Source: a virus. From it: a stretch of DNA of 64,000 nucleotides. This document shows, piece after piece, positions 24,001-27,000 of the stretch. The position numbers were made by a program. The stretch lies in the IMG/VR virus record IMGVR_UViG_3300006139_000001; one strand, written 5' to 3'. The stretch's first letter is position 1; each line of letters opens with the position of its first letter.

Positions 24001-27000
24001 TCTGAGTTTCATTAACCATCTTATCAAGTGTCAAATCACAATACTCATCAACCCAATCTCCAAGATAATAGAAACGGTCAATTACACTGCGAGTCTTTCC
24101 GTTCTGGAATGTGCCAAAAAGAATAGGGTCTTTCCGGCGGCGTTCTTTCTCAACTTGGCGCTCAACTTTTCCCGTATAGTCAGTGAATACAATATAAAGC
24201 TGGTCAAACTTGTCTTTTACTCTCTCAATAACTGCGACAATCTCATCAGGAATTTCACGCTCATAGCTCTCAATGTCGATTATCTTTACTACATCAGAAG
24301 CGACTTCATTGATATAGAATTCAATATCATCACGATACACAAAAGTGTTAATTCCCATTGCAACGATTTCTCGCTCTTTTTCAATACAATTCAAATGGAA
24401 AAGCAACTTTTCCATTCCTCGTGTTTGACCAGTGATTTTGTACTTATTAAGAAGCTCCATGCAGTTATCATAAATTGCTCGTAGCTGCTCGTCTGTAATA
24501 TGCTGCTTTCTTTCTTTTACAATATCAAAATATTCTTGCGGTGACATCTTATTTTCTTCCATGTTTAAGACTCCTTTATATGTATCATTTTCGTGACTTC
24601 ACGAAAATGGTCTAAATTTTATTCCAATTCAAATATAGATGCTAAAAGTATTATCATTTTGTACCTTTGTAATTTCATATAGTTCTAAAACAAAATGAAG
24701 AAATCATTAGACGATACTATGATTTTGTACCTATGTAATTTCATATAGTTCTAAAACTTTGTCAAGTCGTAGTTTTCAAAATCTTCTATTTTGTACCTAT
24801 GTAATTTCATATAGTTCTAAAACCCGTGACAAAGGCTTTAAGCCTAACAGCGTATTTTGTACCTATGTAATTTCATATAGTTCTAAAACCTCAAATTACA
24901 ATATGGCTTTTGTGAGTAGAATCACTCTCACATTTCGGCATCAAAATCTACCGTTACTTACAGTGTTAAACTGCTTTCTTCTTATCATCAACAAAATCTG
25001 TTGACATTGCGATATTTCTTGCAGCATTAAAATCAGCATTGATTTTCTTACCAAAATTATCACACTCTGGATTCTTGCAAATAAATTCAGACTGACTAAT
25101 ACGCTGACCTTTTTCCCAATGACCACAACATGAGCAGACTTGAGAAGTATGATATGGATTTACATTTCTTACAATAATTCCATATTTGTTTGCTTTGTAT
25201 GTAATAAATTGCTGCAACTGATAATATGACCAATTTCTAAGCACAAACTGATTTTTATTTCCATTGCCAATACCGGACAAATCTTCAATGTTAATATACT
25301 TTGCTTTATTTTTTACTGCAAAATCAACAACCTGTTTGCTTACCCAATGGTTATATGTCTTAGTCCAATTTGATTCATATTCTTTGAACCTATCCATAGC
25401 TTGCAATTTCTTTTTTCTACCATGTCCACCATTTGACTGAGCAATAGACTTCTGCAACCTTTTGTATTGGTTCTGAATTTTTGTCCTAACACGAAGAAAG
25501 TCATCTTTTGAACCAATAAATTTTTTATAAACATCGTTTGTATTTAATGCACAAACCGCAGGAATTGCTAATCCAACATCAACTCCGACACAAATATTTT
25601 CATCGAGCTTAATTTCGCATTGTGGCATACTCAAAGAGAGATTTAAGATTATTTTTGTTCCATCAATCTCAATTGTGCTTTGGTTAATACTATAGTTTTC
25701 CTCAAATATATTTCCAAAGACATTGCGAATTTCGACAGACTTATGCGGATTTCCCAAAATGACCTTAAAAGTAATTCCATTTGCAAATTTCAAAAATAAT
25801 TCTAAATCCTTATTATACAAATGACTTAAAAATTCAAAATGGTTCTCATAGTTATGATAAAACCCATTATCACATTTACTTTTTGTGCGAAGCCTTACAT
25901 AGTCTGGATGAATTATTAAAGGGTTTGTATCTCTATATGTAGGCAAAGAAATTTTTCCATATGCCAATCCTTTTTTCATTGCATTCTTAAAATCTTTTTC
26001 AACCTTTTGTGTTACACTCGAAGCAGACGGTAAACCCTTTGCAAATTCAATAGATAAATTATATGCACTTCCTTTTTTGCTTGTACTAATTCTTCCATAC
26101 AAATTACGAAGTTCTTTTCTATCCTCTTTTGTCGCTTCATTCTGCATTGAGATATAAAGTGCACTCATATATTGATTCATCGCCAAATTTTGTGCTTTCA
26201 TACCATCACGCAAATATTTATAGACACGATTTATTTCTTCTTTATCTCCAATCGGAAATAATTGAATTTTTCTGGAAAGTATATTATTCATAATAAATCT
26301 CCTATTTTGAATATTTACAAGGAATATACAATTTTGGTAACTATGTAAAATCAGATATATCTAAAACCTCAAATCACTCATTGTTAATTACATAGTTTTT
26401 TATGAGTGAAGTTTTCCTCACAATCTAGCTGCCAAATCAGCCATTACTTACGGCTTATCCGCTTTCTATTATTTGCATTTATTTTTCTGATTTAACGCTA
26501 ACCGTTCCAAAATGATAACTTCCACATCTTAATCACCTATACTTCAATATTCAACCATCTTTTATTCTTCCAGTACTTCCATTGGATTCTACCCTGGGCA
26601 ATTCTAACTTCAATATCTTCTACATTACCTTGATTCAATAGCCAATCACGATGTTTCTTCTTCTCAATATCAGTAATGGAATAAAGTTTCGCCCAATAGT
26701 CAAGTTCATGGTCAATCTGTTCTACAGACCAATCATAATCAGACATTTGTGCTTGCCTATTAAATTCGGCATGAATTTTGTTCATCTCTGCCTCTGCATT
26801 TGCATAGCTCGTAAACACATTGCGGAAATTTACACTTATATATGACGGATGATGTTCAAACATTGGATACTCTCGCACAATTCTCCATCCGTATTTATTA
26901 TCAATTTCACTTCTGAAATGTGCATGGTCATTATCTTCTACATTTACAAAATAACCTTCTTTATATAGCTGCAAAATTTTCTCTGCATCACTTATACTGT

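Follow-up and report, generated by a model that had tools for sequence, protein, structure and literature searches.

A gut-phage Cas12f locus with type II-A-like arrays whose guides may be written by the host adaptation machinery

How Cas12f/V-U3 arrays without Cas1-Cas2 obtain their spacers is an open question, and it was addressed here with a phage locus. We analysed a window of 64,000 nucleotides, to which positions refer unless another locus is named, from IMGVR_UViG_3300006139_000001, a single-contig virus record of 160,718 bp rated 100% complete by CheckV. Terminase and portal protein genes, 11 tRNAs and a nicotinamide adenine dinucleotide-salvage gene in the record indicate its phage origin. 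The cas12f gene, present as a single copy in the phage genome, lies beside a CRISPR mini-array whose leader end and repeats resemble those of type II-A systems. An earlier note on this DNA had proposed a hybrid system, in which the phage borrows host type II-A adaptation machinery to load guides for its own type V nuclease. In-trans loading by a host II-A Cas1-Cas2 was also the best-supported reading in our analysis, and we consider it on balance probable. It was preferred because the phage has no spacer integrase, while the leader-repeat junction, the repeat ends and the repeat and spacer lengths copy those of II-A Group 1 arrays.

The effector was assigned by profile and structure searches. 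The 441-aa protein matched the Pfam family Cas12f1-like_TNB (PF07282) at 7e-20, and its best solved relatives were all Cas12f chains, with E values of 3.5e-80 for 8hr5, 6e-70 for 9nzp (RhCas12f) and 6e-66 for 9nzo (Al3Cas12f). The structure entries were matched to named Cas12f proteins via PMC13186708. The protein aligned over its full length with RhCas12f and also matched Cn, Al3, Os, As and Un1 Cas12f. When 12 family members were aligned, D238, E336, D420 and the zinc cysteines were invariant, which indicates that the active site of this Cas12f is intact, as judged from the alignment. The effector is an ordinary member of Cas12f1/V-U3, a branch without adaptation genes that is found on mobile elements (PMC10691335, PMC8473940). 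More than 1,700 relatives were detected at E <= 1e-20, mostly on IMG/VR contigs of 90-210 kb. A minority lay in assemblies of Lachnospiraceae, Erysipelotrichaceae and similar families, the nearest being that of a Roseburia sp. (65% identity), and a metagenome scan for relatives gave four loci. On one 597-kb contig, an ordinary 368-aa TnpB with HTH_OrfB_IS605, OrfB_IS605 and TNB domains was located immediately upstream of the Cas12f gene (L010:2572-3678).

Profiles of Cas1, Cas2, Cas4, Cas9 and Csn2 gave no match anywhere in the complete 160.7-kb phage record. The earlier note had described an intact-RuvC Cas12f without cas1, cas2 or cas4, and this description was borne out. The linked cas9-cas1-cas2-csn2 operon, which is a II-A trait, was not found in the complete phage genome.

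The array itself was as previously read, with 36-bp repeats starting GTTTTAG, three 30-bp spacers and ATTTGAG flush with the first repeat (Table 1). No further copy of the repeat was found outside the array in the 160,718-bp genome. The segment between the cas12f stop codon and the array had the features of a trans-activating CRISPR RNA (tracrRNA). In this scaffold, stem 1 is formed by 24953-24948 and 24941-24936, stem 2 by GTGAGAG (24931-24925) and 24919-24912, and an anti-repeat is located at about 24906-24893. The 66-nt scaffold after the stop codon was kept in every relative fetched, and it gave no match in Rfam. We aligned 27 diverse modules, each with its scaffold and repeat. The two stems and the anti-repeat:repeat helix were paired in 92% of cells, compared with 74% in shuffles and 32-43% in slid controls, and compensatory change was observed in 120 cells against 41 expected. 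The anti-repeat:repeat helix alone was 89% paired, 7 of its 10 pairs changed on both sides, and the partners of the anti-repeat were repeat positions 19-28, in the 3' half of the repeat. Since the scaffold anti-repeat covaries with the repeat, the array is evidently cognate to Cas12f. For the same reason, the alternative given in the earlier note, that the array only feeds host Cas9, is unlikely.

A broader form of this alternative is host mimicry, in which the II-A-like repeats engage host Cas9 or its tracrRNA as a guide feed, as an RNA anti-CRISPR or as decoys resembling CRISPR RNA (crRNA). Precedents exist, because solitary phage repeats that resemble host repeats inhibit Cas effectors (PMC10651486) and viral crRNA-like RNAs compete for Cas proteins (bioRxiv 10.1101/2024.10.29.618823), and the 5' part of the phage repeat fits the II-A consensus. 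However, every module has its own covarying anti-repeat of Cas12f type, directed to the 3' half of the repeat, and modules occur strictly together with an intact cas12f gene. Neither a Cas9-type tracrRNA nor an anti-repeat complementary to the 5' part of the repeat was found in the phage genome. Host mimicry is thus a very unlikely explanation of the arrays, although it could be an additional function beside Cas12f guiding.

With a covariance model built from the 27 modules, 148 modules were found across 76 sources, at two to four per locus, and every one of them had the direction of cas12f. In the window the model gave exactly two matches, at 24854-24972 (101 bits) and 26332-26462 (113 bits). 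The second of these, upstream of the gene, has a single degenerate repeat and no spacer. In the relative L003, the same position holds two repeats and one spacer, so the upstream module of the window would be an emptied array. Other layouts were also observed. In the most abundant lineage (P0028; L001:7293-7480, L007, L008 and L010), a truncated repeat-like end and a fixed stretch of ~90 nt lie between the scaffold and the mini-array. The array leader of this lineage ends CTTAGAG, some copies consist of one repeat without a spacer, and the arrangement resembles an omega-RNA-like fixed guide beside a CRISPR array. At L105:844-3141, cas12f is surrounded by three arrays that are variants of the II-A-like kind and by a fourth, whose I-C/I-B-like repeat ends ATTGAAAT.

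We compared the junction and the repeats with those of II-A arrays. In II-A Group 1 the leader-repeat junction is ATTTGAG/GTTT, and adaptation requires it (PMC5382924). Exact ATTTGAG was present ahead of repeat 1 in 44 of the 105 arrays adjoining near relatives. The earlier note had raised the question of whether related arrays lack ATTTGAG. Among the 44 non-redundant related arrays, 22 had it exactly and most had it exactly or as a near variant, with each position of the motif held by one base in 29-39 arrays. TTTGAG had a background frequency of 0.8 per kb. Across the 27 modules, TTTGAGG was kept despite differing linkers; T, T, G, G and G were invariant, the third T was kept in at least 90% and the A in at least 70%. 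These results indicated that the leader-repeat junction motif is under selection across the phage family.

Lachnospiraceae were taken as candidate hosts for this comparison. Arrays beside Csn2 in these genomes had 36-bp repeats, spacers of about 30 bp and a period of 65-67 bp, and their leaders ended ATTTGAG, GTTTGAG or ATTTGGG. The repeat comparison raised in the earlier note also favoured a relationship. The mean ungapped identity between 47 phage repeats and 11 Lachnospiraceae II-A repeats was 57%, compared with 28.5% for shuffled repeats and 37% for distant Cas12f repeats. The best pair matched at 30/36 positions and the window repeat at 24/36, with both termini in common. The earlier note had regarded both a terminal ATTTGAG and the 36/30 geometry as II-A hallmarks. 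The first held, in agreement with the published junction (PMC5382924) and the Lachnospiraceae leaders. The second did not, because the whole Cas12f V-F1/V-U3-like clade has 36/30 geometry, which is therefore not diagnostic of II-A by itself. Cas12f loci of Bacillus, Clostridium and Alistipes have this geometry with repeats that are not II-A-like.

Spacer turnover was observed among closely related phages. In two sets of loci (L131 against L130 and L134; L117 against L118 and L123), the cas12f genes were 99.8-99.9% identical and the trailer spacers were common, but the leader-end spacers differed. The near subclade contained 169 unique spacers with a sharp peak at 30 nt, 112 of them being exactly 30 nt. 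No Cas1 was found in four related phage records, two of which were at least 98% complete. The related phages thus appear to be acquiring spacers at the leader end. Because near-identical phages without Cas1 differ by leader-proximal spacers, the spacers would be added by machinery that the phage does not encode.

These data also bear on the possibility that the II-A features are left over from the past or serve the RNA. In that case the array might once have been captured from a II-A locus, or ATTTGAG might aid the folding or processing of the tracrRNA-crRNA transcript, and the arrays would change by recombination and deletion instead of adaptation. The arrays are tiny, with 2-6 repeats, and in the downstream module of the window ATTTGAG and the anti-repeat share bases. 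The GTGAG arm of stem 2 is similar to TTGAG, which, as read from the sequence, could take its place in pairing with the CUCA arm, so an RNA-level constraint on the motif is possible. However, the motif occurs only ahead of the first repeat, and it is kept although identity among the flanking linkers and the repeats falls to about 60%. The 169 unique spacers, together with the leader-end additions in 99.9%-identical phages, also require that new spacers be supplied. We therefore consider a relic or RNA feature unlikely. The hybrid loading proposed in the earlier note was supported in part: the II-A signatures and the spacer turnover without a phage Cas1 agreed with it, whereas its 'leader' was mainly tracrRNA-like scaffold.

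A different integrase could also fill the arrays. It might be another host Cas1-Cas2, such as I-C or I-B, which are common in Clostridia, or an unrecognised phage enzyme, and the II-A-like junction would then be coincidental. Type I Cas1 without Cas9 is the usual finding in genomes that bear relatives, L105 has its I-C-like array beside II-A-like ones, and a tyrosine recombinase and an open reading frame (ORF) annotated as 'transposase' adjoin the array. However, at other loci the modules do not keep these ORFs as partners. A bacterial parallel was informative on the host enzyme. Anaerotignum sp. MSJ-24 (G003; L014:4300-5540 and L197) has a Cas12f relative that is 49% identical, with a cognate scaffold. 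Its L014 array has 15 repeats, with a 32-nt I-C-like repeat and 33-36-nt spacers, and its own tracr anti-repeat is cognate to this I-C-like repeat. The leader junction TTGCT|GTCGC and the spacer length are those of the resident I-C array ~23 kb away. This meant that an I-C-like Cas12f array co-occurs with the donor-type I-C system in one genome. The effector family is thus constant while the flavour of the repeats, the leader end and the length of the spacers change in concert, a pattern that loading by a resident integrase predicts. Since all three are I-C-like together in Anaerotignum, the junction, the repeat and the spacer length appear to track the integrase. The window array is II-A-like in all three (30-nt spacers, ATTTGAG|GTTT), and we regard a different integrase with a coincidental junction as improbable.

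Several observations, together with the shared geometry and the possible RNA-level constraint described above, weigh against loading by host II-A machinery. Csn2 was present in only 15 of the 151 sampled Lachnospiraceae-family genomes (about 10%). None of these 15 genomes had a Cas12f relative. Cas9 was present in one of five bacterial genomes carrying Cas12f relatives, and Csn2 was not found in the three relative-bearing genomes searched for it. In 401 genomes, there was no bacterial array with a near-identical repeat, and the exact repeat pattern was likewise absent. The repeat of L017 had no second array in its Cas9-bearing genome, where Csn2 was not found. The spacers of a bacterial host II-A array had no match in 38 related phage records. 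In addition, the protospacer-adjacent motif (PAM) picked in II-A adaptation flanks the protospacer on its 3' side, and the one read by Cas12f flanks it, on the same strand, on the 5' side. After loading by II-A machinery, a spacer would thus be usable only where a suitable 5' flank happens to occur, although selection or some unknown coupling may correct this mismatch. No protospacer, and hence neither a 3' nor a 5' PAM, was found in the collections searched.

The target searches were as follows. The window array gave only chance AT-rich matches in INPHARED, no targets in PLSDB or in its own genome, and two chance-level matches in 401 Lachnospiraceae-family genomes, both spanning repeat-spacer borders. 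There were no exact IMG/VR matches for spacer 1 (as a 30-mer) or for spacers 2 and 3 (as 24-mers). The arrays of L114 and L002 had no targets in INPHARED. When 252 family spacers were compared with every locus fetched and with 10 related phage genomes that were complete or nearly so (1.6 Mb), they matched only the arrays themselves, and targeting of sibling phages was thus not supported. As a weak lead, spacer 2 (24758-24787) matched L214:1511-1540 in the phage record G445 at 24/30 positions, with the first 13 nt perfect. This site lies within a small Cys-rich phrog_6884 gene without a homologue in the phage of the window, and the differences between spacer and site are mostly at the codon level.

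Based on the above results, we propose a mechanism for host II-A loading. The phage carries a type V-F (Cas12f1, V-U3-like) system assembled from 'tracr-array modules', each running from a tracrRNA-like scaffold through the anti-repeat and a short linker ending ATTTGAG to a mini-array of 36-bp repeats and 30-bp spacers. The modules are co-directional with cas12f, and the window holds a full module with four repeats after the gene and a collapsed one with a single repeat before it. The covariation suggests that the crRNA would comprise the 3' half of the repeat and the following spacer, paired to the scaffold anti-repeat. The scaffold runs directly into repeat 1, and the newest spacer could thus be transcribed as a natural single guide. 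A host II-A Cas1-Cas2, with Csn2 and Cas9, would insert new spacers at the leader end during infection or carriage, so that the nuclease of the phage would be programmed, presumably to attack mobile elements that compete with it. More generally, the Cas12f of this large gut-phage family might live off host adaptive immunity. Its tracr-fused mini-arrays would have acquired by evolution the ruler length, repeat ends and leader anchor that suit the resident Cas1-Cas2 (II-A here, I-C in the bacterial relative), the host integrase would write guides into the phage genome, and each new spacer, inserted right after the tracr scaffold, would be expressed as a single-guide RNA for the phage nuclease. 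We put this general statement forward tentatively, as a real possibility. In the searchable literature, we found no account of Cas12f arrays that combine the leader anchor of II-A with II-A-like repeats, and none of a layout with multiple tracr-array modules.

The locus was compared with known systems. Type V-F1 (V-U3) Cas12f (CnCas12f1 8HR5, RhCas12f 9NZP, Al3Cas12f 9NZO, OsCas12f 9NZQ) is likewise a TnpB-derived RuvC nuclease of 400-500 aa, with a tracrRNA beside a small array and no adaptation module. Unlike these, the loci of the phage family are on 90-210-kb gut phages and have several modules, placed before as well as after the gene and each having a separate repeat/anti-repeat pair. Their scaffold also meets the array via a II-A-type leader end, and the repeats are homologous to II-A. 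With II-A Group 1 arrays (S. thermophilus CRISPR1; Wei 2015; Van Orden 2017, PMC5382924), the phage has in common ATTTGAG and GTTT, 36-bp repeats, 30-bp spacers and, in its family, growth at the leader end, and its repeat ends resemble those of Lachnospiraceae II-A. However, the phage lacks cas9, cas1, cas2, csn2 and a Cas9-type tracrRNA, its effector is of type V, and the pairing of its anti-repeat is of the Cas12f kind, with the 3' half of the repeat.

Cross-type adaptation in trans is known from Flavobacterium columnare, in which a VI-B array is loaded by II-C machinery (bioRxiv 10.1101/2020.02.20.957498). There, as proposed here, an effector locus without Cas1-Cas2 gains spacers via the module of another system. 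In the present case, in contrast, the array would be on the phage and the machinery in the host, and the effector PAM is on the opposite side from that of the donor. Virus-borne mini-arrays, solitary repeat units and RNA anti-CRISPRs (PMC10651486), huge-phage CRISPR systems (PMC7162821) and the phage Cas12p 'hacker' (bioRxiv 10.1101/2025.01.20.633832) also involve host-like phage repeats and compact phage Cas12 effectors that lack adaptation genes. The repeats described here, in contrast, are tied to a cognate tracrRNA and an intact Cas12f, with spacer turnover in the family. Cas12p is a different family of 500-700 aa that matched the phage protein only at E = 1.7e-9. The TnpB omega-RNA and the transposon-CRISPR intermediates (LaTranC, 9JFO) likewise have the scaffold directly upstream of the guide, in the same transcript and beside the nuclease gene. 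Unlike in TnpB and TranC, the phage scaffold leads to a true array of short repeats whose spacers can be exchanged, the locus has neither transposon ends nor TnpA, and the TranC protein match was marginal (E = 0.08).

This locus and its roughly 100 relatives offer a testable answer to how such arrays are filled, namely a 7-nt leader anchor and II-A-like repeat ends. If host II-A loading is true, the guide library of a virus would be written by host adaptation enzymes, with type II machinery serving a type V nuclease, and the view of phage-host CRISPR conflicts would change. It would also make available a compact effector whose natural tracr-leader-array cassette a well-studied II-A integrase could program in vivo. 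The fusion of scaffold and array in multiple modules bears on the transition from omega-RNA to tracrRNA and CRISPR.

Table 1. Positions of the cas12f cassette, all of whose features (gene, scaffolds, repeats, spacers and ATTTGAG) are on the minus strand of the window, and of neighbouring features.
Feature	Position	Strand	Remarks
cas12f, 441 aa, type V-F1/V-U3-like	24966..26291	-	RuvC triad, CxxC...CxxC zinc motif, Pfam/structure matches
CRISPR mini-array, 4 repeats and 3 spacers	24656..24889	-	
36-bp repeats (GTTTTAG start)	24889-24854, 24823-24788, 24757-24722, 24691-24656	-	trailer repeat with 1 mismatch
Spacers, each exactly 30 bp	24853-24824, 24787-24758, 24721-24692	-	
ATTTGAG, type II-A Group 1 leader-anchor-like	24890..24896	-	abuts repeat 1, overlaps 3' end of anti-repeat
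tracrRNA-like scaffold	24897..24962	-	66 nt, directly after cas12f stop codon
Second tracrRNA-like scaffold, upstream copy	26375..26462	-	better anti-repeat, exact 10-nt complement of repeat core
Second ATTTGAG	26368..26374	-	abuts upstream pseudo-repeat
Single degenerate repeat, 37 nt	26331..26367	-	about 70% identical, no spacer
12-bp hairpin	24584..24611	.	just beyond array; scan scores terminator on + strand only
244-aa ORF	23831-24562	-	phrog_10081 ('transposase'), no Pfam match; directly downstream of array
134-aa ORF	23430-23831	-	phrog_10532; downstream of array
Tyrosine recombinase	22458-23330	-	downstream of array
PemK/MazF toxin	21440-21829	-	downstream of array
620-aa protein, LPD29 'large polyvalent protein' domain	27865-29724	-	two genes upstream of Cas12f cassette

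Public runs gave mouse gut as the setting of the phage, and rat gut contigs from a second study held only part of its cas12f gene. No related phage was found in INPHARED by megablast with 24 kb of the window. The hairpin beyond the array is possibly the end of the transcription unit, and a promoter scan was no better than shuffled sequence. An upstream 266-aa ORF was considered as a Cas12f fragment or as a paralogue of the downstream ORFs, and both were ruled out. The ORFs around the Cas12f cassette may represent a mobile or accessory island. The 244-aa 'transposase' ORF was syntenic in the relative L003, and in L008 cas12f was flanked by an integrase and a PemK gene.

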